Shown here piece after piece: positions 13,457 to 39,095 of a DNA stretch of 64,000 nt. Below the pieces are notes generated by a model, which worked only from the letters and a program-made list of their open reading frames with translations, was not told where the DNA came from and ran no database searches. The stretch lies in IMG/VR virus record IMGVR_UViG_3300047564_002155, positions 96,001-160,000 of that record, one strand, 5' to 3'. A program made the position numbers and the translations under genes. The DNA comes from a virus. Positions within the stretch are counted from its first letter, which is position 1, and the number at the start of each line of letters is the position of its first letter.

Positions 13457-13488
13457 TTTGGTGATATCAAAATAATTTCGTATATTTG
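13457..13488 (+). promoter_or_regulatory. Bacteroidota-type promoter
   Basis: TTTG-N20-TATATTTG; GTG start 4 nt downstream. Confidence 0.8.
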
Positions 13489-23096: not shown

Positions 23097-24883
23097 TGGC
23101 TAAGAATTATGGTGAAGAGCTAGGGTGGGAACTTGGTGTAGATTTCCCAATTTGGGGTAATACTGAAATTTATGTTAAAACAATCTCAAAGGGATACTTA
23201 CTCGCAGGAGAAACCCCAAAAGACGCATATTGGAGGGTATCAACCGCTGTTGCACGCAGGTTGGGTAAACCTCATCTTGCTAGCAAGTTTTTTGATTATA
23301 TTTGGCGTGGCTGGCTTAACCTTGCTACTCCTGTACTTTCTAATACTGGCACCGATAGGGGTCTTCCGATATCTTGTTTCGGTATTGATGTCGGTGATTC
23401 AATCCAAGAAATTGGTACGAAAAACCTTGAAATGATGCTACTCGCCAAACACGGTGGCGGTGTTGGTATTGGTGTAAATCAGATTAGAGCGGCTGGTAGT
23501 AAAATCACCGGAAACGGAACATCTGATGGTGTAGTTCCATTTTGTAAAATCTACGACTCAACGATTCTCGCTACAAGCCAAGGGTCAGTTCGTAGGGGAG
23601 CTGCTTCAATCAACCTAAACATTGAACACGGTGATTTTGATGAGTGGATTGAAATTCGTGAACCAAAGGGTGATGTAAACCGCCAGTCTTTGAACCTACA
23701 CCAAGCGGTAATCATCGGTGATAAGTTTATGAGAAAACTTGAAGAGGGTGACGCTGAAGCAAGACGCAAGTGGGGTAAGGTTCTTCAAAAGAGAAAAGCT
23801 ACTGGCGAACCTTATATTATGTTTAAGGGTAATGTAAACAAGAACAACCCCGAAGCATACAAACAAAATGGGTTGAAAGTCTTTATGACTAACATTTGTT
23901 CGGAGATTACACTTCACACGGATGAATCACACTCTTTTGTATGTTGTTTATCATCAGTCAATTTGGCTAAATACGATGAGTGGAAAGACACCGACCTTAT
24001 CTACACCGCAATTTGGTTTTTGGATGGTGTATTGGAAGAATTCATTCAGAGAGCCAAGAATATGAGAGGATTTGAAAATTCTATCCGTTCTGCTGAAAAG
24101 GGCCGTGCTTTAGGACTTGGAGTTCTTGGATGGCATACTTACTTACAACAACGAGGTCTACCATTTGAAGGTCTACAAGGTCAGTTTGAAACTCGTAGAA
24201 TTTTTTCTGGCATTCGTATTGAAGCTGAAAGAGCAAGTAGAGATATGGCTGAAGAATATGGTGAACCACTATGGTGTGTTGGTACGGGTATGAGAAATAC
24301 TCACTTGATGGCTATCGCTCCGACTGTATCAAACTCAAAATTGAGTGGTAATGTATCTGCTGGAATTGAACCTTGGGCTGCAAATGTATTTACGGAACAA
24401 ACCGCTAAAGGAACTTTTATTCGTAGAAACCCTGAATTGGAAAAGGTATTCCGTAAAATTGGTATCAACAATAAAGATACTTGGGATAAAATTTTACAAG
24501 ATGGTGGTTCAGTTCAAGATATTGCTGAATTAGACAATTGGGGATACCTCAATGGTAAGTTAACCAATCGTTCAGATATGACCGAATCTAATTTTCAAAA
24601 TAAAGAAATTGATTGGGTAAAGGATGTATTCAAAACATTCAAAGAAATTAACCAATTAGATTTGGTAAAACAAGCTGGAATTCGCCAACAATATGTGGAC
24701 CAATCGGTTTCTCTAAATCTGGCGTTTCCATCTCAAGCAACTCCAAAGTGGATTAACCAAGTCCATATGGAAGCTTGGAAGCAGGGAATTAAAACCTTGT
24801 ATTATATGAGAACGGAGTCGGTTCTTCGTGGTGATATCGCTATAAAAGCTACCGACCCTGATTGTTTAAGTTGTGATGGATAG
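23096..24883 (+). CDS. nrdA: Ribonucleotide reductase class Ia alpha subunit
   Basis: ATPVLSN, ISCF, GGGVG, TNICSEI, AIAPT, DQSVSLNL, KTLYY, C-terminal CLSCDG. Confidence 0.96.
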   Translation: MAKNYGEELGWELGVDFPIWGNTEIYVKTISKGYLLAGETPKDAYWRVSTAVARRLGKPHLASKFFDYIWRGWLNLATPVLSNTGTDRGLPISCFGIDVGDSIQEIGTKNLEMMLLAKHGGGVGIGVNQIRAAGSKITGNGTSDGVVPFCKIYDSTILATSQGSVRRGAASINLNIEHGDFDEWIEIREPKGDVNRQSLNLHQAVIIGDKFMRKLEEGDAEARRKWGKVLQKRKATGEPYIMFKGNVNKNNPEAYKQNGLKVFMTNICSEITLHTDESHSFVCCLSSVNLAKYDEWKDTDLIYTAIWFLDGVLEEFIQRAKNMRGFENSIRSAEKGRALGLGVLGWHTYLQQRGLPFEGLQGQFETRRIFSGIRIEAERASRDMAEEYGEPLWCVGTGMRNTHLMAIAPTVSNSKLSGNVSAGIEPWAANVFTEQTAKGTFIRRNPELEKVFRKIGINNKDTWDKILQDGGSVQDIAELDNWGYLNGKLTNRSDMTESNFQNKEIDWVKDVFKTFKEINQLDLVKQAGIRQQYVDQSVSLNLAFPSQATPKWINQVHMEAWKQGIKTLYYMRTESVLRGDIAIKATDPDCLSCDG

Positions 24884-24893
24884 AGATATAAAA

Positions 24894-25892
24894 ATGAAAC
24901 ATAAAGTAGAATATGTTTGGTTAGATGGTTATAAGCCAGAACCAAACCTCCGCTCTAAAACAAAGATTGTAGATGGTGCTGGTGGGTTGAAATTAGAAGA
25001 TTTGCCTGAATGGGGATTTGATGGTTCATCAACCCAACAGGCGGAAGGACACTTTTCGGATTGTCTTCTAAAACCTGTAAAGTTGGTGATAGACCCACAA
25101 CGAACCAATGGTTGGATTGTATTGTGTGAAGTTCTGAATCCAGATGGAACACCACACCCATCAAATATGAGAGCACACTTGGAAGACCATCCAAATAATT
25201 GGTATGGGTTTGAGCAAGAATACACTTTTGTAGAAGATGGTAGACCGGTCGGATTCCCCAAAGATGGATACCCTGCACCACAAGGACAATACTATTGTGG
25301 AGTTGGTGGTGGATTGGTATCTGCAAGAAATGTAGTTGAAGAACACTTGGTTGTGTGTTTAGCTGCAGGATTAGATATTACCGGTATCAACGCTGAAGTG
25401 ATGTTGGGGCAATGGGAGTTCCAAGTTATGGGTAAGGGTAATAAGGATGCTTGCGACCAATTGTGGATTGCAAGATACTTTCTACATAGAATTTCCGAAG
25501 ACTATGATTTTAAAGTAGAGTTTCATCCAAAACCAATGGTTGGTGATTGGAATGGTTCCGGTCTACATACTAACTTCTCAACCAAAGAAATGAGAGAAGT
25601 AGGTGGTAAAGAACTATTTGATAATATCTTTTCAGCATTTGAAAGAAACCATATCAAGCACATTGCAAACTATGGTTCATCAAACGAAATGAGATTGACC
25701 GGTAGACACGAAACTCAATCAATTGATAAGTTCAGTTGGGGAGTTTCGGATAGAGGTTCTTCTATCCGAGTTCCACAAGCAACTGCTAAAGAGTGGATTG
25801 GTTACTTGGAAGATAGAAGACCTGCGTCAAACGCTGACCCCTACCGAATCGTAAGGGTTATTGAACAATCTTTGAAAGAGGTAAATTTATGA
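24894..25892 (+). CDS. glnII: Glutamine synthetase type II
   Basis: EYVWLDG, WGFDGSST.QA, GFEQEY, INAEVMLGQWEFQ, HPKP..GDWNGSGLHTNFST, RLTGRHET, YLEDRRPASNADPY. Confidence 0.95.
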   Translation: MKHKVEYVWLDGYKPEPNLRSKTKIVDGAGGLKLEDLPEWGFDGSSTQQAEGHFSDCLLKPVKLVIDPQRTNGWIVLCEVLNPDGTPHPSNMRAHLEDHPNNWYGFEQEYTFVEDGRPVGFPKDGYPAPQGQYYCGVGGGLVSARNVVEEHLVVCLAAGLDITGINAEVMLGQWEFQVMGKGNKDACDQLWIARYFLHRISEDYDFKVEFHPKPMVGDWNGSGLHTNFSTKEMREVGGKELFDNIFSAFERNHIKHIANYGSSNEMRLTGRHETQSIDKFSWGVSDRGSSIRVPQATAKEWIGYLEDRRPASNADPYRIVRVIEQSLKEVNL

Positions 25893-26455
25893 TTATTATT
25901 GATAATTTTATTAAAGACCAAGAGTTTCTAAACAAGATTAGAAACGACAAAACTTTTTTTGATACAAAAGGATATCATTGGTGGGATGGTTGGTGGAGTT
26001 CTCCAGCGGATACTATCAAAAAACAATTGATTGAGTATATTTGGAGAGATAATTGTCCACCGGACCACATCTATGAATTGTATGGGTTTGAGTATTGGAT
26101 TGGAACGTATTCAGCATCCGAAGTTGGTGATGGTAATACTGACAATCTAAATATGCACTTTGATAAAGATGAGTTTTGGTTCAAAGAGACTGGTGAGTTA
26201 CGAGTCCCTATTATGGGTACGGTTTTCTATCCGTGGGAACACGATATTGATGGTGGATACCTTGAAGTATTTTCAAAAGAAGGTGAAGAGCCAGAACGAA
26301 TTGCTGCCGTTCCAAATAGGTTGATTATTTTTCCTGCTGGAAAGTATCCACATAAAGTTACTCAAGTGACTCGTGGAACCAGATACGCAATTGCAATTAA
26401 TTTGTGGGATGTTCTACCGTCTGGAGTTTCCAACGGGCAAATGATGTATGAATGA
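25889..26455 (+). CDS. 2OG-Fe(II) oxygenase
   Basis: HFD ... GGYL ... NRLIIF ... HKVT ... RYAI (HxD...H...R). Confidence 0.85.
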   Translation: MIIIDNFIKDQEFLNKIRNDKTFFDTKGYHWWDGWWSSPADTIKKQLIEYIWRDNCPPDHIYELYGFEYWIGTYSASEVGDGNTDNLNMHFDKDEFWFKETGELRVPIMGTVFYPWEHDIDGGYLEVFSKEGEEPERIAAVPNRLIIFPAGKYPHKVTQVTRGTRYAIAINLWDVLPSGVSNGQMMYE

Positions 26456-26670
26456 TAACATTTAGAATGTCGTTACGAGGAGAATCACACCCACAACATA
26501 AACTAACGGAAGACCAAGTAAAATCTATTCGTAAGTTGTGGGCTATTGGGCATAGAAACATTCGTGTTCTTGCACGAAACAATGGCGTATCATCCGCTAA
26601 CATTCGTAAGATTGTAAAAGGTGAAACTTGGACTCATATTCTTTTTGGTGAATTCAATGACTACCAATGA
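26452..26670 (+). CDS. Small helix-turn-helix protein (homing-endonuclease-type DNA-binding domain, standalone)
   Basis: GESHPQHKLTEDQVKSIR...LARNNGVSSANIRKIVKGETWTH. Confidence 0.7.
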   Translation: MITFRMSLRGESHPQHKLTEDQVKSIRKLWAIGHRNIRVLARNNGVSSANIRKIVKGETWTHILFGEFNDYQ

Positions 26671-27428
26671 AAGTAGAAGGTAAGATATATTTTGACCCAT
26701 CCAAATTTTCAGTAAGACCTATTGCAAAATCAGTTGCAAAGGACATTATTGTAAACAACCATTATAGTGGTATTTGGACAAAAGTATCTTATGCTTTAGG
26801 GCTTTTTTACAAGTCGGAAACGGAACACCAATTTTTTAGTGGAGTCAACGAAGAGTTGGTCGGAGTTGCTACTTATGGAGACCCCATCGGTAGACATTCC
26901 GGCCAATCTATTTCGCCACTACTTGACCGAACTGAAGTCCTTGAACTTACACGACTATTTGTTTTTGATGGCTATGGGTGTAATGTAGAGAGTTGGTTTG
27001 TTAGTCAGACCTTTAAGTGGTTAAGGGAAAACGCCCCACACATTAGAGGGTTGATTTCATACTCTGACCCCAAGGTAGGTCATAAGGGGACGGTTTATAT
27101 GTCTACCAATTGGATTTATCAAGGTAATCGTATTAGACCCAACGACTCGTGGTTATTCAAGTGGGAAGAGGGTGGTGAGTGGACACATTCACGAACATCA
27201 TATGTAAAGTTTGGAACCAATAATCCAAAAAAAATCCAAGAGATGACCGCCGCTCCATTTTGGATAAAAAAGGAACTTCGCAAACATCGGTATGTTTATA
27301 TTTTGGATAATTCAAAAAAAAGTCGTATATTGAAGAACCTAAAATATCCATCATTACCATATCCAACGGAAAACGAGGAGTTCATAGAAGAAATCTACAA
27401 ATTAGACCCAATTGAAAGAGGACAATAA
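26667..27428 (+). CDS. Mom-like GNAT-fold DNA modification protein (copy 1)
   Basis: NHYS, ELTRL, NVESWF, ISYSDP..GHKGTVY.STNW, KHRY. Confidence 0.8.
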   Translation: MKVEGKIYFDPSKFSVRPIAKSVAKDIIVNNHYSGIWTKVSYALGLFYKSETEHQFFSGVNEELVGVATYGDPIGRHSGQSISPLLDRTEVLELTRLFVFDGYGCNVESWFVSQTFKWLRENAPHIRGLISYSDPKVGHKGTVYMSTNWIYQGNRIRPNDSWLFKWEEGGEWTHSRTSYVKFGTNNPKKIQEMTAAPFWIKKELRKHRYVYILDNSKKSRILKNLKYPSLPYPTENEEFIEEIYKLDPIERGQ

Positions 27429-28206
27429 GACATATGTAGACACTTCACGAGTTACCATTCGTGAAATCAACAAAGCCATCGCAAAGGATATGATTGTGAC
27501 CTATCACTATTCCCACGCTTGGACTATGTGTAGATACGCATTGGGTATTTTTTACAAAACCGATGAAAAGGACATTCTTGGAAATGATGAGCAATTGATT
27601 GGAGTTGCTGTGTATGGATTTCCTGTTGGTAGGTCGGCTGTGACCTCTATCATTGATGGGTTGGGTAATGACCAATGTTTGGAGCTAACACGATTGTTCA
27701 TCCACGATGGTTATGGGTCAAATATTGAATCATACGCATTGGGACAAACATTTAAGTGGATGAGGGAACACGCCCCCAACATCAAAATGTTATTGTCGTA
27801 TTCAGACCCATTCCAAGGTCATTTGGGTGGTATCTATCGTGCTACCAATTGGTTATTCCAAGACACCAACAAAATCCAATTGATGCCGAACTATGGTATT
27901 TCATTAGAAGGTGAAAATGGAACTTATATTCACTCACGAACTGTATTTTCAAAGTGGGGCTCGCATAATCTTGAACATTTGAAAACTGAAATTGGTAAGG
28001 ATGGGTATAAAGAGTTCTGGCGTAGAAAAGAAATGTCTAAACTACGATACATTCAGATTCTACCAACAAACAAAGGTGAGAAGAAGAAACTGATGAACTC
28101 ACTTAAACATCCGTGTGAAACTCCACCAAAGGATATCAGCGACATCTTACCAAAGAGTGAACGATACGAAACTTACGAGCCAGAAAATATGGTTAGTTTT
28201 TGGTAG
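27412..28206 (+). CDS. Mom-like GNAT-fold DNA modification protein (copy 2)
   Basis: YHYSH, ELTRL, NIESY, LSYSDP..GHLGGIYRATNW, KLRY. Confidence 0.8.
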   Translation: MKEDNKTYVDTSRVTIREINKAIAKDMIVTYHYSHAWTMCRYALGIFYKTDEKDILGNDEQLIGVAVYGFPVGRSAVTSIIDGLGNDQCLELTRLFIHDGYGSNIESYALGQTFKWMREHAPNIKMLLSYSDPFQGHLGGIYRATNWLFQDTNKIQLMPNYGISLEGENGTYIHSRTVFSKWGSHNLEHLKTEIGKDGYKEFWRRKEMSKLRYIQILPTNKGEKKKLMNSLKHPCETPPKDISDILPKSERYETYEPENMVSFW

Positions 28207-28233
28207 ACTTTGACCAAAAAAATACTAAATAAT

Positions 28234-28264
28234 TTTGGCAGTTCAAAAATATTTCGTATATTTG
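28234..28264 (+). promoter_or_regulatory. Bacteroidota-type promoter
   Basis: TTTG-N19-TATATTTG. Confidence 0.8.
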
Positions 28265-28274
28265 TATAGTAATG

Positions 28275-28317
28275 ATTGAGAAAGTTCTCCGATTCTCAAT
28301 TTAGTAAACAGGAGAGT
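28275..28317 (+). promoter_or_regulatory. Putative H-type pseudoknot in a 5' leader
   Basis: Stem ATTGAGAA/TTCTCAAT (28275-28282/28293-28300); loop GTTCTCC can pair with GGAGAGT (28311-28317). Confidence 0.4.
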
Positions 28318-28336
28318 AATTTTAAAAACCCCCACG

Positions 28337-28831
28337 ATGAGTAATTATCACAAGCGAGTTCCCTTCCACTCCCTAAACGAAGGTCAAATTGAATATCATC
28401 CCATTTTGAGTGGTATTCGGTATCAACAAAACAAAAAAAGTTTTACAACTTACAATGTTAAAAGTAGGTTAGCTGCTGCAATCTACGAGAACAATGGTAA
28501 CTGGGATGTTATGTTATGTCCAGCCGGTGCTAGACCCGATGGTTCAACTAATCATTCTCAAAATCATTCCACGGTAAAGGCTGACGCTCCGTTGTTACTT
28601 CAATATCTTAAAATTAAAGGATTTGACAACAGAAACCGAAATCTTAAATTTAAAGACCTTCCTTTTTCTTTTGAAAAATTTGAAGACGCATTAGCTTGTT
28701 TTCAACTTTATGAAGAAGTGGTTTTAAATACACCACTATTGGATTTGGATAAAGTTAATTTACAATCAAATCCTTGGACAAAACGAGATTTTGAAAATTT
28801 AAAAAATAATCGTATATTTGTTAACCAATAA
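28337..28831 (+). CDS. Hypothetical protein
   Basis: 164-aa ORF downstream of its own promoter. Confidence 0.65.
   Translation: MSNYHKRVPFHSLNEGQIEYHPILSGIRYQQNKKSFTTYNVKSRLAAAIYENNGNWDVMLCPAGARPDGSTNHSQNHSTVKADAPLLLQYLKIKGFDNRNRNLKFKDLPFSFEKFEDALACFQLYEEVVLNTPLLDLDKVNLQSNPWTKRDFENLKNNRIFVNQ
28790..28820 (+). promoter_or_regulatory. Bacteroidota-type promoter inside the 3' end of the preceding gene
   Basis: TTTG-N19-TATATTTG. Confidence 0.65.
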
Positions 28832-28834
28832 AAA

Positions 28835-30631
28835 TTGAAAGATATGAGAAGTTTAAAAGAAGCTTTAGTGTGGGTTGGTGAGAACAAAGCAAAGCCCGCT
28901 ATTTTCGTTAGAACATTGGGTGTTGTTACATTTCAAATGTGTCGTGAGTTGATTGATAGTGGTGCTCTTGATAATGAGGCTAACCGAGATGAGGATTTGG
29001 ACACTCATAAAAAGTATTGGGGTAAACTTCATCACTTGATTCGCTTCGTAAGCGGTATCTCCGAAAAGGGTCAGTTATTGGTGTCTATCTTAAAGGACAA
29101 AGTGGGTGATGTTGGTTTCATTCGTGATAACGGAACATTGTTTTCCTTGTTGTTTGGTAAATACTACGATAGTAGTGTTCTAACAGGTAATGAATGGTTA
29201 ATGATGTGTGAGGACATTATTAAAGATTATGACATCACGAATGAGGATGATAAGTGTGTAATCAATATGATTACTGACTATTTCAACAAGAAGACACCAC
29301 AGGAACTTGATATTAAGTATTCTTTAAAACATTTGATAGATGGCTCTGATGAGTTTCGTGAATTCTTTGACAATAGTCAAATTGCATTTGTTGTTAATTT
29401 ACACACTGTAAAACAATTTGAGAAGGATATGATTAATTGTAACCGACAACCAAATCCGTGGTTGGCTTACAACTACTATATGACTCCTTTGAAACGAACG
29501 GATGAGTACAAAACTTATTTTTGTGGTGACCAACTTTTAGAATATTTTACTAATAAGGTAGGTGCTGATGAATTTACACGAGGTGGGTTGATGTCGGGTC
29601 ATAAAGGATATGCCGAGAAACACAAAGTAGCAAAGATGATACCAATCCTTCAGGCGTACATTGGTTCTCACTATTGTGATACCATTGATGAGTTTAAAAA
29701 GTTTAACGATATGGTCGTTAGTTTTGAAAACGGAACAACCGATGGTAAGGAAACCGAATACTGGCAATCTATGTTTAAGCGTGTCATTTCGGAAGTAAGT
29801 TATGGTGAGTTGACCAAGTGGTACGAAAGTACATATGTGAAGGTGTTTGAATCGGATGATTGGAAGACAATCACCACTACCATTAACAAGATTGTAACCA
29901 ACAATCTAAATGGGAAGCGAATAACGGCTATGGAAGACCTTCACATTAAAAAGTATCATACAGGAATTTTGTTATTCACCTTTGTTTTACACTTCAAACG
30001 AACCAAGAAGTCAGTTGGGATATCAAAGTTAACATCCAAAGTAGTCAATGAGTATTGTAAACTGTTGAATGGTAATGTTGACCACGAAGGTAATCAAATT
30101 AGTGTATGGGAGTATTTTGGAACACAATCTTCGGTTTACTCATCAACGAGTGCCAATGTTAGATTTGAAAAGTTGTTCAAATATGTTTTTAAGAATGTTG
30201 AATCTAACTTGAAAGCTGGCTCTAAAGACCGTGACCATCAATCCGAATATCGTGAGCAGTCACTAAAACGAATTTCAACCTTCCTTGAGTCCGAGGGAAT
30301 GCCTCAACGACTGAAACTATACCCACTATCTACCGATGTGTTGAGTGTTGTAAACTTCAAGACTGGCGAGGGTGTCCAATGGTTACATAAATCACCCAAC
30401 TCAACCGGGGGTGATGCTAAAGATGGGTTTTTGGGTATGACTGATGATAACCTAACGGGTAATCAAAAATACAAGAATTGGAATTGTACACCAAACGAGT
30501 ATTGGGAGATGTTGGTTGAACATAATGAGAAGATGTCTGGCAATTTGAGTCCAATTGAAAAACGGATTGTCGCTTCATCAATTAATACAATTTACCAAAT
30601 CCTTGAAACGGGTTTAAATTTTGGAGCATAA
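28835..30631 (+). CDS. Large hypothetical protein, possibly with a degenerate C-terminal HNH/His-Me finger
   Basis: 598-aa ORF; WLHKSPNSTGGDAKDGFLGMTDDN resembles H..P.S.GG.....N. Confidence 0.5.
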   Translation: MKDMRSLKEALVWVGENKAKPAIFVRTLGVVTFQMCRELIDSGALDNEANRDEDLDTHKKYWGKLHHLIRFVSGISEKGQLLVSILKDKVGDVGFIRDNGTLFSLLFGKYYDSSVLTGNEWLMMCEDIIKDYDITNEDDKCVINMITDYFNKKTPQELDIKYSLKHLIDGSDEFREFFDNSQIAFVVNLHTVKQFEKDMINCNRQPNPWLAYNYYMTPLKRTDEYKTYFCGDQLLEYFTNKVGADEFTRGGLMSGHKGYAEKHKVAKMIPILQAYIGSHYCDTIDEFKKFNDMVVSFENGTTDGKETEYWQSMFKRVISEVSYGELTKWYESTYVKVFESDDWKTITTTINKIVTNNLNGKRITAMEDLHIKKYHTGILLFTFVLHFKRTKKSVGISKLTSKVVNEYCKLLNGNVDHEGNQISVWEYFGTQSSVYSSTSANVRFEKLFKYVFKNVESNLKAGSKDRDHQSEYREQSLKRISTFLESEGMPQRLKLYPLSTDVLSVVNFKTGEGVQWLHKSPNSTGGDAKDGFLGMTDDNLTGNQKYKNWNCTPNEYWEMLVEHNEKMSGNLSPIEKRIVASSINTIYQILETGLNFGA

Positions 30632-30632
30632 T

Positions 30633-31751
30633 ATGAGAGTTTTAGTTATACCAAATTACACCAACTTTGGGGCTGTTAAAGACATCAATAGGGATTCGTT
30701 CCTATTGGTGTTCAAGTCCTTTTTAGATAATACGCAAATTGGTAAAGAGTGGGAGTGGATTCTACCTTATCCTGATTTAGATAATCATCCTGGTATCATC
30801 AACGCATTTGAATACCCGAATGTTCAGTTGGTAAAAATGGATGGATTGGATTCATTTCCACCCAAAATGAGGGTAGATTATCCTCACAAGTTTTTCAATA
30901 GAATCATTGAAAAATACAAAGGTGAATTCAATTTGATTTGGAGTCATTTGCCTGAATGGACTAATGAGTTTAAAGTAACTCGTATCTATAATAAAACTCA
31001 ACCTATTATTGGATATTGTCATTGGTGGGAAATCAAAGATAATGGTGCAAGAGATGATAATTCATTTTGGCGTAATGTCAAGGGTATGTTAGAAATGAAA
31101 GTGTGTGGTGTAAACTCACAATGGGTAAAAGATTTAGTAATCAAACGAGCATCTGAATCATTTCAACCACATATCATTGAGCAATTAGAACAAATTATTC
31201 AACCTTGGTATCTTGGATGTGATTCCGCAACTCCAACATCTACATACGAACCTAAAACTATTTTGTATAATCATAGATGGGGTGTGTATACGGGTTCGGA
31301 ATTCTTTTTTGAGGTAATGGATGAATTATGGAAAACTCGTAAAGATTTCCAAGTGTGGACTACCTTAAAAGAAATGGGTAAACCATATACCAAATATATT
31401 GGTCACGCTGATAGAGATGTATATATGAATCAAATGTCAAAAGCACATTTTGGTGTAGGTACGTTCCAAGGATATTCCGCTTGGTCTATGTCAGCAACTG
31501 ATGGTTTATCTCGTGGAGTTCCATATTTACTACCAAATGATTTTTGTTATCCTGAAATGGTAGGCACTGATTACCCTTTACTTTATAATGGTAAAGAAGA
31601 ATTTAAACAAATGGTTGTAAAACTATTGGATGGTGATATTGAACGACCTGATGTAACTCATATTGCAGAATCCTTGCTTTGGGAACACCAACTAAAAAGT
31701 TGGAATGTAGAAGAAAACTTTGTTAATACCGCACGAAAAGATTTTAATTAA
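30633..31751 (+). CDS. GT-B fold glycosyltransferase adjacent to DNA polymerase
   Basis: IWSHLPE, ILYNHR, WSMSATDGLSRGVPYLLP...YPEM (GT4-like acceptor/donor motifs). Confidence 0.75.
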   Translation: MRVLVIPNYTNFGAVKDINRDSFLLVFKSFLDNTQIGKEWEWILPYPDLDNHPGIINAFEYPNVQLVKMDGLDSFPPKMRVDYPHKFFNRIIEKYKGEFNLIWSHLPEWTNEFKVTRIYNKTQPIIGYCHWWEIKDNGARDDNSFWRNVKGMLEMKVCGVNSQWVKDLVIKRASESFQPHIIEQLEQIIQPWYLGCDSATPTSTYEPKTILYNHRWGVYTGSEFFFEVMDELWKTRKDFQVWTTLKEMGKPYTKYIGHADRDVYMNQMSKAHFGVGTFQGYSAWSMSATDGLSRGVPYLLPNDFCYPEMVGTDYPLLYNGKEEFKQMVVKLLDGDIERPDVTHIAESLLWEHQLKSWNVEENFVNTARKDFN

Positions 31752-34270
31752 TGTATCAAAATGTATACTATGAAAAGGAAAATGGTATCATCCATTGCTG
31801 GGATGACCAAAAAGGTTATTTTACAAGCAAGTACCGTAGATACGCATATGTTAGAGATGGGAATGGTTCTTTTACTTCTATTCACGGAGAGCGTCTTAAA
31901 AAGATAAACTTTTGGAAGCAAGAGGATAATCTTAAACTTTACGAAAGTGATGTAAACGAAATGACTCGTTTTCTGATTGACCAATATGGTGATTCAGATG
32001 AGGTATCTACCGGTCATACTATTCTAACCTTTGATATTGAGGTTGAGATGAATAGTGGTTTGCCGGACATTGATAAAGCAGGTAACGCAATCACTTCAAT
32101 TGCAGGTCACGATTCAGTCACCAACGACTATTTCGTATATGTTGTATCGGACAATTATGTTGACAAAACCATCAAAGGAGCTCAAGTTCGTTCGTTTAAA
32201 ACTGAAGCTGACCTACTTGAATCATTTCTAAACAAATGGCAAGAAATCAACCCAACAATCGTTACGGGTTGGAACATTGACTACTTTGATATTACTTACC
32301 TATACAATCGTTTAAAGAATGTGTTGGGTGAGAGAATGGCTAGTAAACTTTCTCCTATTGGTAAGATTGGATACAACAAATATCGTAATCGTTATATTAT
32401 CGCGGGTGTAAGTTGTTTGGACTACCTTGCTCTTTACAAGAACTTTACCTACCAAGAATTCCCTAACTACCGATTGGATACCATTGCTAATATCGTATTG
32501 GGTAGGGGTAAAATTGAATACAAGGGTAATCTTGACCAATTGTTCCGAGATGATTTGGAAAAGTTCATTGAGTATAACTTGGTGGATGTGGAGTTGGTTG
32601 TTGAAATGGATAGAAAACTTCAGTTCATTGAATTGGCTCAAGCGATTTGTCACGCAGGGCACGTATTTTATGAAGATTTCCTATTCTCATCAAAGTGGTT
32701 GGAAGGTGCTATCCTAACTTTCTTGCGTAGAAGTAATCGTGTAGCGCCAGACAAACCACGAAGAGCGGAAAAGAACGAAGATGGGTCTGATGGTGAGGGT
32801 AAGTTCACAGGTGCATATGTAAAAGAACCCAAACCCGGTCTTTACAAGTGGGTATATGACTTGGACTTGACTTCGCTGTATCCATCTATTATTATGACCT
32901 TGAATGTGTCGCCAGAAACAAAGATTGGTAAACTCAAATCATTCTCTTCGGAAGATTATATGAAGAACAAGATTGAGTCGTATTCAATCGTGGATGATAA
33001 TGGTCGTGAGTTTCCACCGCTAACTCGTGATGAATTTCAAAATCTAATCACGGAATCCAATTATTCAGTATCATCAAATGGTGTATTGTACACGCAAGAT
33101 AGGGTTGGTGTAATACCTGAAATCTTGAATGTTTGGTTTGACAAGCGAGTTGAGTATAAGGACTTAATGAAAAAATATGGTAAAGAGGGTAATAACGAAC
33201 TTTACAAGTTTTACTCTCAACGCCAGTTGGTTCAAAAAATTATGTTGAACTCCCTTTATGGTGTATTGGGTCTACCATCATTCCGATTCTATGATGTGGA
33301 TAACGCAGAAGCTACCACAATTACGGGTCAAACTGTAATCAAGACCACGGAGATGATTGCTAACCAATACTACAAAAGTATCATTGGTAAAGAGGATGAC
33401 TACAATGTATATACCGATACTGACTCCGTATTCTATCAGGCGGCTCCGCTTGTAAAAGCAAGAAACCCACAAATTGATGTGGAGTCTGATGAACAAATGG
33501 TTCCAGCGATTCTATCAGTTGCTCAAGAGGTTCAAGCCCACATCAATAAGGTCTACGACACGATGTCTAAAAAGTTATTCAATGTGGACTTTCACCGATT
33601 TGATATCAAACAAGAAACCATCGCAAAAGGTGGATTTTGGGTATCAAAGAAGAGATACGCACAATGGATTATCAACGACAATACTGTTCCTTGTGATAAG
33701 ATGGATGTTAAGGGATTGGATGTTCGTAGGTCATCATTCCCAACCTACTTTAAGAAGGTGATGGAGACTGTTTTGTTGGATATTCTAAAAGGTGTTGATA
33801 AATCTATAATTGATGATAAACTTATCAAATTCAAAGAAGAGATGTCAGACCAAAACTTTACGGATATTGCAAAGAACTCTGCTGTGAAGGATATGTCCAA
33901 GTATGTAAAGAATCGTAAGGAGTACGCATTGGGTGAATTTGAGAAAGGAACCCCAGCGCACGTTAAAGCTGCTATAACCTATAATAGGTTGTTGAAACAT
34001 TATAACGCTCCTTACAAATATGAACCTATGAAGGATGGTGATAAGATTAAGTGGGTTTACTTAAAAAAGAATCCACTTGGATTGGAAGCTACCGCATTCA
34101 CAGGTCATAACGACCCCCCACAAATCAATCAGTTTATTCAACAATACATTGATGTGGACTTGATTTGGGAAAAGGAGTTGGAGAACAAAATCACCGACTT
34201 CTATGACGCAATGAATTGGGACAAACCAAATCCCAATCTTCTAAAAGCATCGCAATTTTTTGGATTTTGA
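31751..34270 (+). CDS. Family-B replicative DNA polymerase (gp43-like)
   Basis: Exo FDIE, TGWNIDYFD, YNLVD; pol DLDLTSLYPS, KIMLNSLYG, YTDTDS, KKRY. Confidence 0.97.
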   Translation: MYQNVYYEKENGIIHCWDDQKGYFTSKYRRYAYVRDGNGSFTSIHGERLKKINFWKQEDNLKLYESDVNEMTRFLIDQYGDSDEVSTGHTILTFDIEVEMNSGLPDIDKAGNAITSIAGHDSVTNDYFVYVVSDNYVDKTIKGAQVRSFKTEADLLESFLNKWQEINPTIVTGWNIDYFDITYLYNRLKNVLGERMASKLSPIGKIGYNKYRNRYIIAGVSCLDYLALYKNFTYQEFPNYRLDTIANIVLGRGKIEYKGNLDQLFRDDLEKFIEYNLVDVELVVEMDRKLQFIELAQAICHAGHVFYEDFLFSSKWLEGAILTFLRRSNRVAPDKPRRAEKNEDGSDGEGKFTGAYVKEPKPGLYKWVYDLDLTSLYPSIIMTLNVSPETKIGKLKSFSSEDYMKNKIESYSIVDDNGREFPPLTRDEFQNLITESNYSVSSNGVLYTQDRVGVIPEILNVWFDKRVEYKDLMKKYGKEGNNELYKFYSQRQLVQKIMLNSLYGVLGLPSFRFYDVDNAEATTITGQTVIKTTEMIANQYYKSIIGKEDDYNVYTDTDSVFYQAAPLVKARNPQIDVESDEQMVPAILSVAQEVQAHINKVYDTMSKKLFNVDFHRFDIKQETIAKGGFWVSKKRYAQWIINDNTVPCDKMDVKGLDVRRSSFPTYFKKVMETVLLDILKGVDKSIIDDKLIKFKEEMSDQNFTDIAKNSAVKDMSKYVKNRKEYALGEFEKGTPAHVKAAITYNRLLKHYNAPYKYEPMKDGDKIKWVYLKKNPLGLEATAFTGHNDPPQINQFIQQYIDVDLIWEKELENKITDFYDAMNWDKPNPNLLKASQFFGF

Positions 34271-34302
34271 TTTGGATAATTAAAATTAATTTAGTATATT
34301 TG
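34271..34302 (+). promoter_or_regulatory. Bacteroidota-type promoter
   Basis: TTTG-N20-TATATTTG; ATG 4 nt downstream. Confidence 0.8.
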
Positions 34303-34306
34303 TATT

Positions 34307-34510
34307 ATGAATATTGAACAAGCAAAACAAGTATTAAAGGAGAATGGTTACTATGTAGATAATCTCTGGCACACCGATGATGTCCACCAATTTGGTGATA
34401 TTTCAGAGGATGGTGCATATGATGTGTTAAATTCAGTTTTACAAAATGCGTATACCATTGAAAAAATCAATGAAATGCTGCACGATGAATTCTACGAGCG
34501 AACAAATTAA
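34307..34510 (+). CDS. Hypothetical protein
   Basis: 67-aa ORF. Confidence 0.7.
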   Translation: MNIEQAKQVLKENGYYVDNLWHTDDVHQFGDISEDGAYDVLNSVLQNAYTIEKINEMLHDEFYERTN

Positions 34511-35121
34511 TGAGTGTAACCAACTACATAGTAGAATTATGTCCACGAAGTGAGATTGTAAACTTTGTGGAAACTCATCACTATTCAAAAAATATGAATG
34601 GATTACACATTTCATATTGTTTTAAGTTGATGGATGGTGATACTATGATTGGTGCTATGGTTTATGGGTCTTTGGGTATGGTTGGGGTTGCTGAAAAGTA
34701 TACCTCCAACCCATCAAAGATTTTAGAGTTGAAACGACTCGTTTGTATTGATGATACTCCAAAAAATACCGAATCGTATTTTATAGGTTGGACTCTTCGG
34801 TGGTTACAACGAAATACTGATTTGGAAATGATAATCTCATATGCTGATAAAACATTTGGACACGAAGGTGTGGTTTATAAAGCTACAAACTTTGAGTGTA
34901 TGGGTGAAACATCAGCTGGAAGGGTTATTATGTGGAATGGTCGTAGGTATCACGACAAAACTTTAAGAAACAAACACAATGGGAAACTAAAGCCCGTTGC
35001 TATTGAATTGAAAAACGCATTGGATGATGGAAGTGCTCAGTATGTGGAAACTCTTACAAAGAACATTTACATTTACCGATTCAAAAAAAGAAAACAAAAA
35101 ATCCAGCAATGGTTTGGATAA
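34510..35121 (+). CDS. Mom-like GNAT-fold DNA modification protein (copy 3)
   Basis: HHYSK, ELKRL, NTESYF, ISYAD..FGHEGVVYKATNF. Confidence 0.82.
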   Translation: MSVTNYIVELCPRSEIVNFVETHHYSKNMNGLHISYCFKLMDGDTMIGAMVYGSLGMVGVAEKYTSNPSKILELKRLVCIDDTPKNTESYFIGWTLRWLQRNTDLEMIISYADKTFGHEGVVYKATNFECMGETSAGRVIMWNGRRYHDKTLRNKHNGKLKPVAIELKNALDDGSAQYVETLTKNIYIYRFKKRKQKIQQWFG

Positions 35122-35144
35122 TTCAAAATTATTTCGTATATTTG
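35113..35144 (+). promoter_or_regulatory. Bacteroidota-type promoter
   Basis: TTTG-N20-TATATTTG overlapping the stop of the upstream gene. Confidence 0.8.
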
Positions 35145-35166
35145 TCTAAACTAAAAATTAAAAAGT

Positions 35167-35868
35167 ATGAAGAAAAGTTCATTTGAGGGATTTGTCTCTC
35201 GTTATAATCTTGGCGGTGAAGTTGAATCCGTTAAGGTAGTCTCAACTGATGAAGGACTTTCGGTTCGTTTCATCTCTGATGACAAAACCCTTTTGGGTGT
35301 TGTAGAAAGTGAAGATAAGTCATTCCCTAATGGTGAATTTGGTATCTACACTACTTCACAACTAAAAGGTTTGTTGGGTGTTCTTGACGCAAGTGTTGAT
35401 GTAAAATCTAATGAAACTTCATTGGTATTTTCAGACACTAAAACTTCGGTAAACTATGTGTTGGCTGAATTGTCAGTAATTCCAGCAGTTCCAGAACTCA
35501 AGCAACTCCCCAACTTTAATGCTACCATCACTTTGGATGAAGCATTCATTGGGACATTTATCAAATCAAAAGGTGCTTTGAGTGATTCGGATACCTTTAC
35601 CTTTACTTGTACTGGTGAATCAAACGCAGGTAAGATTGTTTTGGGTTATTCTAAAATCAACTCTAACCGAATCTCTATCAATGTAGATTGTGTTTGTGAA
35701 AGTGATGTTCAACCCATTTCATTCTCTGCTAAATACTTGAAGGAAATCTTGAATGCAAATCGTGGTGCTAAAGCATCTTCTATGAAGGTCTCATCACAAG
35801 GTCTTGCTTCAGTTTCTTTTGAACACGAAGGATACAAATCATCTTACTACCTCGTAGAAGTAAAGTAA
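35167..35868 (+). CDS. Sliding clamp (gp45/PCNA-like)
   Basis: 233 aa, EFGIY..SQL..LL, FSAKYLKEIL, KVSSQGL...F......YYLV; located near the clamp loader. Confidence 0.8.
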   Translation: MKKSSFEGFVSRYNLGGEVESVKVVSTDEGLSVRFISDDKTLLGVVESEDKSFPNGEFGIYTTSQLKGLLGVLDASVDVKSNETSLVFSDTKTSVNYVLAELSVIPAVPELKQLPNFNATITLDEAFIGTFIKSKGALSDSDTFTFTCTGESNAGKIVLGYSKINSNRISINVDCVCESDVQPISFSAKYLKEILNANRGAKASSMKVSSQGLASVSFEHEGYKSSYYLVEVK

Positions 35869-37055
35869 TGTTTTGGGATACTGAACCAGCGAAACCTGCG
35901 TTTGACTATGATGTAGAAAAGGGTAAGTTCATTGAAAATATGGACTACCTTTCTTCTATGTCCGTAGAAGAACAAACACTTTACAAAAAGTGGCAGGAGT
36001 GGAACTATGACTTGGCTACCTCTATGAAGAGAAAAGCAGGTCTGGCTCTTCACTATGATGCTCTTTGGATGCCGAAAGACATTCAAAATAAGGAACAAAC
36101 AATCAAAGAAATTGAAGACCTTGAACCTTATGTAGAAATTGTTGATGACCCAAAAGAATCTACTCGCTGGACTGAAATCCGAAAACTAATTCATACGATG
36201 TCTTTTGATGCTAATCCCGGTCGTAATGTAAAGATTTACATTAAGGATAGGGTTAGTGGTAAGATACTTGGAATGATTTCCTTGGCTTCAGATGTCACAT
36301 CATTGGGAGTTCGTGATACCTACATTGGGTGGACCCAAGACAACAAATACAAAGATGGTAAGTTGAATCATACTACTATCGCATCCACAATTGTCTGCAC
36401 CCAACCTTTGGGGTACAATTTCTTGGGTGGTAAGTTGATTGCTTGTATGGCTACATCGGAGGTAGTTCGTAAACATTGGAAAGAGAAATACGGACAAACT
36501 TTGATTGCAGTCGGAACCACTTCTTTGTATGGTATTCACTCTCAATATAATGGTATCCCCCACTTCAAAACCTTGGGAGAATCCGCAGGTAAGGTAGCTA
36601 CAAAGCCAGATGATTCAGTTTACGAACCCTGGCACCATTGGATTAAAGAAAACAAATCCGAAGAGTACGCTATTCAAACTGCTGAAAAAGAAGGTGTAGA
36701 TGGACCTGCTACCGGAGTAAAGCAGAAAGTCATCAATATGATTTTCAAAGAACTTGGGTTGAAAGGTTCTCACTACCAACACGGATTCAAACGAGGTGTG
36801 TATTTCGCACAAATGTATGAGAATGGTAATGAGTTTCTCCGTAATGAGATTACCGAAGACCAACTGATAATGAAGGACAAGTTTGTTCAGAGCGATGAAT
36901 ACACAATGAAGTGGTGGAAACCAAAGGCAATCAAACGATACGAAAAACTACACGAAGAAGGTCGTATCAAACCAGAATCATTATTTTACCTTGATATCAT
37001 TGGTATGTCGTGGGAAGATTGTAAAGAAAAATATCTAAAAGAAGTAGGAAGATGA
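35868..37055 (+). CDS. DUF4338 / DruA-like protein
   Basis: NPGRN, RDTYIGW, QPLGYNFLGGKLIACM, TTSLYG..SQYN. Confidence 0.75.
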   Translation: MFWDTEPAKPAFDYDVEKGKFIENMDYLSSMSVEEQTLYKKWQEWNYDLATSMKRKAGLALHYDALWMPKDIQNKEQTIKEIEDLEPYVEIVDDPKESTRWTEIRKLIHTMSFDANPGRNVKIYIKDRVSGKILGMISLASDVTSLGVRDTYIGWTQDNKYKDGKLNHTTIASTIVCTQPLGYNFLGGKLIACMATSEVVRKHWKEKYGQTLIAVGTTSLYGIHSQYNGIPHFKTLGESAGKVATKPDDSVYEPWHHWIKENKSEEYAIQTAEKEGVDGPATGVKQKVINMIFKELGLKGSHYQHGFKRGVYFAQMYENGNEFLRNEITEDQLIMKDKFVQSDEYTMKWWKPKAIKRYEKLHEEGRIKPESLFYLDIIGMSWEDCKEKYLKEVGR

Positions 37056-37966
37056 GTAATTCATTATGGGTTGAAAAATACCGACCAGATACATTAGAAG
37101 GATATGTAGGAAACGAACACATCCTTGAAAAGGTAAAGATTTACATTCAAAATGAAGATGTCCCACACCTTTTATTGTATGGACAAGCCGGTACGGGTAA
37201 AACCACATTGGCTAAAATCATTACCAATCAGATTGATTGTGATTTGATGTATATTAACGCTTCTGATGAAAACTCCGTAGACGCAGTTCGTGATAAGATT
37301 CGTGGATTCGCATCATCTATGGGTTTTAGAAAGTGGAAGGTTATTATCTTGGATGAGGCTGATTATTTGTCTCAAAACGCCCAAGCGGCTCTTCGTAATT
37401 TGATGGAGACATTTTCAGCATCTACTCGTTTTATTCTAACTTGTAATTTTGTTGAAAAGGTAATTGACCCTATCCAATCTCGTTGCCAAACATTTGCAAT
37501 TACCCCACCATCTAAAAAGGATGTTGCAAAACGATTGAATGATATTCTAACAACCGAAGGTATTGAATTTGAAATGTCAGACCTTGCTGTGCTTGTTAAT
37601 AGTGGATATCCGGACATTCGTAGAGTTCTAAACGCAGCTCAACGACAGGTCATCAACGGCAAATTGGTGATTGACAAACAATCAACTCTTGAAGCAAACT
37701 ACACCGAAAAAGTGGTACAAGAATTGATGTCTAATAATGATGCAAAAACAAAGTTCACCAATGTCAGACAAATTATTGCTGATTCAGGTGTTAAAAGCTT
37801 TGAACCTTTGTATAGAACCCTTTACGATAGAGTAGATGACTATGGGAAAGGTAAAGTCGGACAAACCATCTTAAACATCGCGGATGGTCAGTATAAAGAC
37901 GCTATGGTAGTTGATAAAGAAATCAATGTAATGGCGATGATGTTAAATATTATAACAAGTATCTAA
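37052..37966 (+). CDS. Clamp loader AAA+ subunit (RFC/gp44-like)
   Basis: LWVEKYRP, GQAGTGKTT, INASDE, IILDEAD, AQAALR, IQSRC. Confidence 0.95.
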   Translation: MSNSLWVEKYRPDTLEGYVGNEHILEKVKIYIQNEDVPHLLLYGQAGTGKTTLAKIITNQIDCDLMYINASDENSVDAVRDKIRGFASSMGFRKWKVIILDEADYLSQNAQAALRNLMETFSASTRFILTCNFVEKVIDPIQSRCQTFAITPPSKKDVAKRLNDILTTEGIEFEMSDLAVLVNSGYPDIRRVLNAAQRQVINGKLVIDKQSTLEANYTEKVVQELMSNNDAKTKFTNVRQIIADSGVKSFEPLYRTLYDRVDDYGKGKVGQTILNIADGQYKDAMVVDKEINVMAMMLNIITSI

Positions 37967-37967
37967 A

Positions 37968-38249
37968 ATGGCAAAAGGTAAAGTAATTCCAATGGGTGGT
38001 AAACAACAACCAACTCAACAAGCACCAAAAATCAATGTTGACCCCTTTAAACTCAAAACAGTAACTTGTCCTAATTGTGAAGGTATTTTCTTCACGGAAG
38101 TGACTATGTTTAAAGAAGTTCCAGCGGTAATGTCTCCGAATGGTCAACAATCAATGCTACCAATCCCTGTGGTTGTATGTAATGAATGTGGGACTGTTCA
38201 TCCAAAGTTCACTCCAAAAGAGTTCTTTGAAGGTGGTGAAGAAAAGTAA
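37968..38249 (+). CDS. Zinc-ribbon protein
   Basis: CPNC ... CNECG. Confidence 0.75.
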   Translation: MAKGKVIPMGGKQQPTQQAPKINVDPFKLKTVTCPNCEGIFFTEVTMFKEVPAVMSPNGQQSMLPIPVVVCNECGTVHPKFTPKEFFEGGEEK

Positions 38250-38688
38250 TGATGGTGTAGTAAAAGCCAAAGGGTTATTTGACCACTTGGGTGGTATTAC
38301 TCATCTTAAAACTCCGTGGGAGAGCTTGTCCACGATGGATAAGAAATCCTTTGAAACCTATATGGTTAATCGGTTCTTGTCTATGGGTGTTGATAATGTT
38401 GAAATTGTAAACATTATAAATCAATACACAAACGGACAGCTAACCCCACGAGAGGTTTATAAGTTTTACTTGGATATTCTACCAAAGAAAAAATCATTCA
38501 ACAAGTATATCAAAGGTAAGTCCGAAGACAAGTGGGATAAAAATGTAATCCAGTATTTGTGCAAATACTATGAAGTATCATCCCGTGAAGTTTTGGATTA
38601 CCTTGATATTCTTACCAAGGATGAAATCAAATCAATAATTGTTAAATATGGGATTGACCCAAAAGAAATAGATAAATGGCTAAAATGA
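38233..38688 (+). CDS. Probable clamp loader small subunit (gp62-like)
   Basis: LFDHL..IT, YMVNRFLSM, YKFYLDILPKKK.F.KYIK, YYEVS.RE. The GTG start at 38233 is chosen over 38140. Confidence 0.7.
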   Translation: MVKKSNDGVVKAKGLFDHLGGITHLKTPWESLSTMDKKSFETYMVNRFLSMGVDNVEIVNIINQYTNGQLTPREVYKFYLDILPKKKSFNKYIKGKSEDKWDKNVIQYLCKYYEVSSREVLDYLDILTKDEIKSIIVKYGIDPKEIDKWLK

Positions 38689-39095
38689 TTAAAGAAGCAA
38701 AAACCAAAGTAGAGTGGGTAGCTGAAGAAGAGCGCCCCAACTATGGTGGGGTCAAAGAACAATCTGCAATTGAGTATTGTGAAGAAAACTATCCACAAAC
38801 TACTGAAGAGTTCAAAAATATTTTGGATGAGATGTATCTTACTTTTTGTAAGAAGCAGAGAAACTACGGACCGGGTAATATCTCCGTAGGAACATCACTT
38901 CAAACCCAAGATGAGGTTAGATTGTCTTTGACCGGATTATGGTTCCGTATTAACGATAAAGTTAATCGCTTGAAGCAGATGGTTGTATTGGGTCAGCCAG
39001 ATGAGGTTGGTGAGTCAATCCAAGATACATACGAAGACCTGTCGGTCTATGGTATTATCGCTCAGATTGTTCAGCGTGGAAAGTGGGGAAAATAA
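38676..39095 (+). CDS. DUF1599 / nucleotide-modification-associated domain 1 protein
   Basis: KKQRNYG..NI, RINDKVNRL, ESIQDTYEDLSVYGII. Confidence 0.75.
   Translation: MAKMIKEAKTKVEWVAEEERPNYGGVKEQSAIEYCEENYPQTTEEFKNILDEMYLTFCKKQRNYGPGNISVGTSLQTQDEVRLSLTGLWFRINDKVNRLKQMVVLGQPDEVGESIQDTYEDLSVYGIIAQIVQRGKWGK

Follow-up and report, generated by a model that had tools for sequence, protein, structure and literature searches.

Why should a phage carry three genes of the Mom family, together with a relative of the Druantia protein DruA, among the genes of its replication machinery? The question is raised by IMG/VR virus record IMGVR_UViG_3300047564_002155, a sequence of 168,128 bases with an estimated completeness of 94%, whose bases 96001–160000 form the window, that is, the whole stretch of 64,000 nucleotides analysed here. 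The Mom-family genes are called Mom1, Mom2 and Mom3, and the fourth gene encodes a protein of the DruA/DUF4338 family, referred to as the DruA-like protein. The answer to which we lean, with slightly better than even confidence, is that the locus encodes parallel, probably clamp-tethered, aminoacyl-tRNA-dependent Mom-type DNA modifiers, which counter host restriction.

How Mom works was not established until 2026, and then for one enzyme, that of phage Mu. Mu Mom is a dimeric GNAT with an insertion resembling a helix-turn-helix (HTH), and it alone moves glycine from Gly-tRNA(Gly) onto adenine N6 in double-stranded DNA, post-replicatively, after which the adduct rearranges to N6-carbamoylmethyl-adenine (PMC13219725). 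An earlier note on this DNA, made from its letters, had instead taken it as established that Mu Mom is replication-linked, but Mu Mom is not known to act in this way. The natural system described here, which combines two to four paralogues of Mom with a DruA relative of Mom-like shape and is common in metagenomes, bears on three matters: what sets donor and target specificity in the Mom family, whether a sliding clamp can aim DNA modifiers at a phage's own new DNA, and what role is played by the DruA domain, which is found in Druantia and in many transposons.

Three Mom-family genes and the HTH-Mom core

The three genes are located as follows:
26667–27428, + strand: Mom1, Mom-family GNAT of 253 residues (PF25680, 147.9 bits; PDB 8bv8, E 8e-11)
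27412–28206, + strand: Mom2, Mom-family GNAT of 264 residues with a TTG start and a 17-nt overlap with Mom1 (PF25680, 157.3 bits)
34510–35121, + strand: Mom3, Mom-family GNAT of 203 residues (PF25680, 117.3 bits; phrog_1384, 185.5 bits)

Family membership was tested with Pfam PF25680, which has a gathering score of 27.1 bits. The three genes match it with E-values of 1e-34 to 1e-46, all of them also match phrog_1384, and a search of the whole 168-kb record found no fourth PF25680 copy. Among PDB sequences, all three proteins have Mu Mom (8bv8) as their best match, Mom2 and Mom3 as their sole one, and Mom1 can be aligned with it up to residue 231. Pairwise identity is 43% for Mom1 and Mom2 and 30% for Mom1 and Mom3, and the motifs HYS, EL.RL, N.ES and SY.D..GH.G..Y..TN are invariant columns in the alignment of the three. 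The paralogues and shared motifs described in the earlier note are thus borne out, and residues on which Mu activity depends are kept.

Their conservation was assessed by aligning Mu Mom with Mom1, Mom2, Mom3 and two outgroup Moms, from a Polaribacter phage and a Synechococcus phage. Among the invariant positions, in Mu numbering, are H58, Y59, S60, E108, L109, R111, N121, E123, S124, D149, Y159, N163 and H183. In Mu Mom, R111, S124 and R151 are essential, and D149, H58, Y59, Y159, W48 and W181 are important (PMC13219725). The likeness to the Mu enzyme spans the hidden Markov model family, the GNAT core with its late insertion, and H58, Y59, R111, S124, D149 and Y159. The insertion itself (Mu residues 175–209), which is required for Mu activity, is aligned throughout in all three proteins, with G179, H183, K191 and Y217 invariant.

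As the same catalytic set is present in all three Moms, the same type of reaction is expected of each. Mom1, Mom2 and Mom3 would most likely each use a charged tRNA as the source of an aminoacyl group (glycine in Mu) and place it on adenine N6 in double-stranded DNA, and they probably differ in sequence context or in donor. On the donor side, 10 tRNA genes are clustered at genome coordinates C1:11511–13229, outside the window. These include tRNA-Gly(GCC), tRNA-Ala, tRNA-Ser and tRNA-Thr, which are possible donors for Mom-type enzymes, though the cluster is distant from the Mom genes. No tRNA-like element was found beside DruA or Mom, either by ARAGORN in any locus or by Rfam in the window.

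Mu has one mom gene, whereas the phage studied here has three, from at least two lineages. In a set of 50,697 cultured phage records, Mom matches are confined to a single place in each record that has any (313/313; 321/321). Orthologues of two of the genes were compared, 65 for Mom1 and 72 for Mom2, and each family keeps the core motifs plus private conserved positions, which are retained in orthologues at 57–98% identity. This is the pattern expected of two enzymes retained for separate tasks.

In Mu, the small regulatory-type gene com overlaps the 5' end of mom. Here, an equally placed gene encodes an HTH protein and not a Com translational regulator:
26452–26670, + strand: s72, HTH protein of 72 residues, whose stop overlaps the Mom1 start

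The predicted s72 structure consists of three helices (pLDDT, the predicted local distance difference test score, 76). Its weak Foldseek rows are all HTH proteins, its weak PHROG matches are to the DNA-binding tails of HNH endonucleases, and 35 columns are invariant across 13 orthologues. The protein may serve as a DNA-binding regulator or targeting factor. Its C-terminal tail differs by lineage, yet is always rich in aromatic residues (FGEFNDYQ, KWPYE, NEFWSGSL).

The arrangement of these genes was followed in relatives by scanning IMG/VR, where 142 stretches were retrieved with the DruA-like protein and 76 with Mom2, and by mapping the genes of the window onto these loci. About 100 related contigs share a core in which s72 is followed by (Mom1)-Mom2 and which also includes the DruA-like gene. 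In nearly all related loci s72 lies directly upstream of Mom1-Mom2. Wherever Mom1 occurs, Mom2 lies within 1 kb downstream (86 of 86 cases), and Mom1 is never found without it, whereas Mom2 occurs without Mom1 in about ten loci of several lineages, in which s72 abuts Mom2. Because of these ten or so relatives, an obligate heterodimer of the tandem pair, which had been proposed beforehand, is unlikely. Mom1 may act as a partner of Mom2, since it has no terminal tag of the kind described below and is never found without Mom2. In a maximum-likelihood tree the Mom2 clade is recovered at 100/100 and the Mom1 clade at 83/97; the branching order of the two is not settled by the tree.

Some relatives have extra, very divergent Moms, given here by locus:
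L036, 1482–3718
L136, 14543–15241
L144, 5307–5906
L151, 2517–3329

Their sites differ, with one tandem triple, one copy inside the clamp-loader operon and two upstream.

The DruA-like protein beside the clamp

The fourth gene lies exactly between the genes of the sliding clamp and of the large clamp-loader subunit:
35167–35868, + strand: sliding clamp, gp45-like (phrog_223, DNA polymerase processivity factor, E 9e-10), placed between the family B DNA polymerase PolB and the clamp loader, as in Microcystis phage Mel-JY01
35868–37055, + strand: DruA/DUF4338-family protein with a Mom-like GNAT core at about residues 80–330 (PF14236, 87.6 bits, cut-off 27)
37052–37966 and 38140–38688, + strand: clamp loader, gp44-like (large) and gp62-like (small) subunits (phrog_168, phrog_225, PF16790)

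The earlier note had placed a DUF4338-like gene at this point. The PF14236 score supports it, and the gene is present in all 49 related loci that have Mom2 and are 18 kb or longer. The genome has one DruA/DUF4338 copy. A protein search recovered 2,931 proteins related to the DruA-like one (E 1e-5 or better), from which it follows that the clade is abundant in metagenomes. The site of the gene varies, being either the gap between clamp and clamp loader, as here, or, in one subclade, directly after Mom2. DruA-like genes also occur in many Synechococcus myophages.

The DruA-like protein was modelled with high confidence (pLDDT 93.5; predicted template modelling score 0.90). Foldseek gave weak rows only, all of them acetyltransferases. 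An exhaustive structural search of 48,161 chains placed Mu Mom first (8bv8_B, Z 10.7, root-mean-square deviation 4.3 over 174 aligned residues from the model's residues 80–327), and ordinary GNATs reached Z 9.7 or less over about 135–165 residues. From the model, it is safe to say that the protein is a GNAT whose nearest solved structure is Mom, and DUF4338 had already been called a GNAT by an Aravind-group paper (PMC10853773). The relationship to Mom that the earlier note suggested is upheld in this structural sense, with a profile similarity to Mom that is not significant. Helices at 249–303 of the model, between the last two strands, would sit at the topological place of the Mom insertion.

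The alignment from which the model was made consists of 40 diverse relatives collected in a library-wide search; in it, the invariant residues of the family include K189, Y227, a TTS motif at 217–219 and R309, and these have no obvious mapping onto Mom residues. Since the conserved residues differ from those of Mom, the chemistry may differ as well, and the DruA-like protein would be a fourth enzyme built on a Mom-like GNAT core. It must also be able to work alone, as Pelagibacter phages have DruA-like genes without Mom. The comparison with DruA of type I Druantia is close in family (PF14236, at the score given above) and in the GNAT-type core. Unlike in type I Druantia, there are no DruB–DruE or other Druantia genes nearby, the neighbours are the phage clamp and clamp-loader genes, and the phage protein begins with an FW tag. 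If a DruA-like class of GNATs that modify nucleic acids were confirmed, it would point to a biochemical role for DruA in Druantia defence.

It is here that a different target has to be weighed, namely that at least one of the four GNATs acts on charged tRNA or protein rather than on DNA, in host takeover or with a toxin-like function. Other GNATs that use or modify charged tRNA do act on tRNA, peptides or lipids, the DruA-like protein has conserved residues unlike those of Mom, and generic acetyltransferases come close behind Mom in the fold search. The three Moms, however, are full-length family members that have the insertion required in Mu and proposed to bind DNA, and the genes sit among those of DNA replication, so that this explanation is very improbable.

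Terminal aromatic tags and the Mom3 cassette

The link between the modifiers and the clamp that we propose comes from the ends of the proteins, for which the polymerase provides the reference:
31751–34270, + strand: PolB, gp43-like family B DNA polymerase (48.5% identity to Mel-JY01 PolB)

PolB ends in KASQFFGF here, and all orthologue tails listed end in FF[GSA]F. This resembles EKASLDFLFG, the T4 gp43 tail, which is a gp45-binding element (PMC6212786). Mom2 ends in FW in all orthologue tails listed, behind a linker that varies freely, with F263 and W264 invariant, and Mom3 ends in WFG on a basic extension of 12 residues. The Darwin, RaK2 and DSL-LC03 Moms, three of the four nearest relatives of Mom3, stop before this extension, and the WFG tail is found in 0/4. 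The DruA-like protein begins with M(x)FWDT in all orthologue N-termini listed, in a low-confidence, probably flexible stretch of its model. The extra Mom in the clamp-loader operon of locus L136 begins with MEFWKG. Mom1 has no terminal aromatic tag. Among about 184 genes, two F or W residues within the last four positions occur only in Mom2, PolB and Mom3, and two at the protein start only in the DruA-like protein and one membrane-type leader.

Mom2, Mom3 and the DruA-like protein thus probably dock on the phage sliding clamp via these putative tags, and such docking would direct them to new phage DNA. Like the known clients of T4/RB69 gp45, namely the gp43 tail and the ligase loop (PMC6212786), the modifiers have short terminal aromatic peptides on flexible ends. 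Unlike them, the candidate tags are far shorter (FW, WFG and N-terminal FW). On Mu Mom there is no C-terminal aromatic tag of the sort seen on Mom2 and Mom3. The probable purpose of the modification would be to shield phage DNA from host restriction. As for the coupling to the replication fork that the earlier note had proposed, it is plausible on account of the resemblance between these tags and the clamp-binding tail of the polymerase; the position of the genes does not provide a basis for it.

That position has another explanation, which is seen at Mom3:
34268–34303, + strand: promoter-like repeat, copy 1, 36 nt (TTTG ... TAtaTTTG), upstream of s67-Mom3; a direct repeat, 86% identical to 35110–35145
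34307–34510, + strand: s67, open reading frame (ORF) of 67 residues heading the Mom3 cassette and confined to the closest relatives
35110–35145, + strand: promoter-like repeat, copy 2, 36 nt, upstream of the clamp gene; an over-represented motif

Apart from the closest relatives, Mom3 occurs in just one further lineage. Most relatives lack it, and in those the gap between PolB and gp45 is only 42–64 nt, mostly with one promoter-like element. The s67 ORF is missing in some relatives that have Mom3, and searches of Pfam, NCBIfam and PHROGs gave no family match for it. Mom3 shares 50–56% identity with the Moms of Geobacillus, Corynebacterium, Klebsiella and Synechococcus phages and falls into one clade with them (100/99). 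A phylogeny of the paralogues had been put forward beforehand as a check, and it recovers the Mom1 and Mom2 clades and places Mom3 in a different lineage. Judged by its sequence, Mom3 is a separate acquisition, because it groups with Moms of other phage groups, and it is inserted as a cassette between two promoter copies. Promoter-bounded mobile cassettes are known in T4-type phages, and the Mom3 cassette resembles them. Insertion between promoters explains a modifier gene inside the replisome block with no need for functional coupling. The idea of modification genes fixed within that block does not hold, as in other relatives the DruA-like gene comes after Mom2, and Mom3 arrived by insertion of a cassette.

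The same observations lend themselves to an explanation in which the Moms are independent, redundant anti-restriction enzymes with no link to replication, the intergenic promoters are favoured insertion sites and the aromatic ends are incidental. The duplicated promoter copies that flank the Mom3 cassette agree with this, as do the differing sites of extra Moms in relatives, the mobility of the DruA-like gene and the action of Mu Mom, which is post-replicative, on double-stranded DNA and without a clamp. It does not account for tags that are invariant across deep divergence beside variable linkers, for their confinement to PolB and the modifiers among all genes counted, or for the gain of a tail by Mom3 relative to its closest relatives. 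This explanation is rather unlikely.

Several points count against clamp-tethered Mom-type modifiers, the reading preferred here. The position of Mu R151, which is essential in Mu, is occupied by K in Mom1, F in Mom2 and T in Mom3, and the Mu dimer residue W48 is not kept either, aligning with S, A and R in the three Moms. R151 is also replaced in the Polaribacter and Synechococcus phage Moms, and since the residue differs in both outgroups it may be specific to the Mu subgroup. Neither donor nor target of a Mom can be read from its sequence (PMC13219725). The presumed tags of Mom2, Mom3 and the DruA-like protein are just two or three residues long. For the DruA-like protein, the structural lead of Mom over ordinary GNATs is about 1 Z unit, and in the profile comparison of its family with the Mom families, which was not significant, the forced alignment was out of register. 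Finally, the Pelagibacter phages Mosig and HTVC008M have stand-alone DruA-like homologues and no Mom, so that the Mom-DruA link may be shared ancestry within one clade.

A bolder version of the preferred reading is that a clamp-tethered, replication-coupled battery operates throughout a widespread aquatic clade of T4-like phages, with Moms that make different adducts or act in different contexts and with the DruA-like protein as a new class of nucleic-acid-modifying GNAT. This we consider decidedly unlikely. Arrays of Mom paralogues, an association of Mom with DruA and clamp-type tags on Mom were not found described in the searchable open literature, and neither paralogues nor DUF4338 are mentioned in the main text of PMC13219725 (Silva et al. 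2026). New here are the occurrence of Mom1 only together with Mom2, the Mom3 cassette between promoter copies, the HTH-(Mom1)-Mom2 core, the genome-wide tag count and the exclusion of the DUF1599-like gene discussed below.

Genome setting and neighbouring genes

Nearly all genes of the phage are on the + strand. By sequence this phage from water is a distant, uncultured T4-like one, because it has a family B PolB whose closest cultured relative is that of Mel-JY01 (the 48.5% identity given above), followed by those of T4-like cyanophages and vibriophages at about 30%. The genes run from the large subunit of ribonucleotide reductase through a GlnII-type glutamine synthetase and a 2-oxoglutarate (2OG) oxygenase to s72, Mom1 and Mom2; then come three ORFs without a family match, PolB, the 67-residue ORF, Mom3 and the clamp. 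After the clamp follow the DruA-like gene, the large clamp-loader subunit, a small ORF, the small clamp-loader subunit and the DUF1599-like gene. In Mu, mom is a late gene of a transposable phage, whereas the Mom genes here lie among early/middle replication genes of a T4-like phage. The clamp-loader gene order matches that of Mel-JY01, and these genes are context, outside the modification set. The features around the set are:
24873–25892: GlnII-type glutamine synthetase, near full-length (NF041605, 412 bits), directly after the ribonucleotide reductase gene
25889–26455: 2OG-Fe(II) oxygenase (PF13640), directly upstream of s72-Mom1-Mom2
28337–28831: ORF of 164 residues, between Mom2 and PolB
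28835–30631: ORF of 598 residues, between Mom2 and PolB
30621–31751, + strand: ORF before PolB, resembling a GT-B (GT4-like) glycosyltransferase by language-model features alone
37968–38249, + strand: small Zn-ribbon-like ORF between the two clamp-loader genes
38676–39095, + strand: DUF1599-like gene (PF07659, 23.2 bits, below the cut-off of 25, E 8.7e-5)

The last of these had been counted in the modification system as a DUF1599/Nmad1-like member. It is better left out: the match is below the cut-off, and an orthologue of 49% identity is found at the same place in Mel-JY01. As neither Mom nor DruA was found in Mel-JY01, the gene is a backbone gene. The glutamine synthetase was considered as an amidating partner and rejected, for it is found in none of the related loci compared.

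The ORF at 30621–31751 has no match in Pfam, NCBIfam or a profile search of PDB sequences. It is kept in most relatives as two very divergent forms (about 30%; 52–96% identity) and is missing in some, and it could be a DNA or fibre glycosyltransferase. The 2OG oxygenase is upstream of s72 in some relatives only. In Pelagibacter phages, 2OG oxygenases are likewise found near a DUF4338 gene.

The earlier note had considered a multi-step modification, and these two genes might take part in such a pathway: once one Mom had added an aminoacyl group, the adduct would be elaborated by the remaining Moms, the DruA-like GNAT, the 2OG oxygenase and the GT-B-like protein. Several relatives do have the oxygenase immediately upstream of s72, and in most relatives a glycosyltransferase-like gene separates PolB from Mom2 or from the DruA-like gene; the genes are also tightly packed. 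Against this, no such pathway is needed, because the single Mu enzyme performs the glycyl transfer from Gly-tRNA(Gly) to double-stranded DNA, and all three Moms have the same catalytic set. Moreover, none of the oxygenase, the glycosyltransferase-like gene, Mom1 and Mom3 is present in every relative, the glycosyltransferase assignment comes from language-model features only, and the DruA-like gene occurs without Mom in Pelagibacter phages. A multi-step pathway is thus improbable, and it belongs, together with a strict Mom1-Mom2 heterodimer, to the less likely possibilities.

Parallel Mom-type modifiers, which we prefer, also agree with the remaining gene content. DNA methyltransferases (Dam-type, N6/N4 or C5) and ThyA-like hydroxymethylases were not recognisable in the genome, and for this reason the Mom/DruA set is its only recognisable DNA-modification machinery. 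The 164- and 598-residue ORFs gave no match in Pfam, NCBIfam or PHROGs, nor did the 598-residue ORF by language-model features; it is present in few relatives only.

No + strand site of the T4 late promoter, TATAAATA, was found in the window. A short promoter-like motif, TTTG-N17-21-TAnnTTTG, occurs 13 times in the window against 3.7 expected. TTTG and TAnnTTTG separated by 17–21 nt resembles the promoter consensus of Bacteroidota, and this resemblance hints at the host. A longer conserved promoter-like element (TTTGG .. AAAA .. TTTCGTATATTTG) lies on the + strand at window positions 13457, 28234, 28790, 34271, 35113 and 39776, in each case directly upstream of one of six + strand genes.

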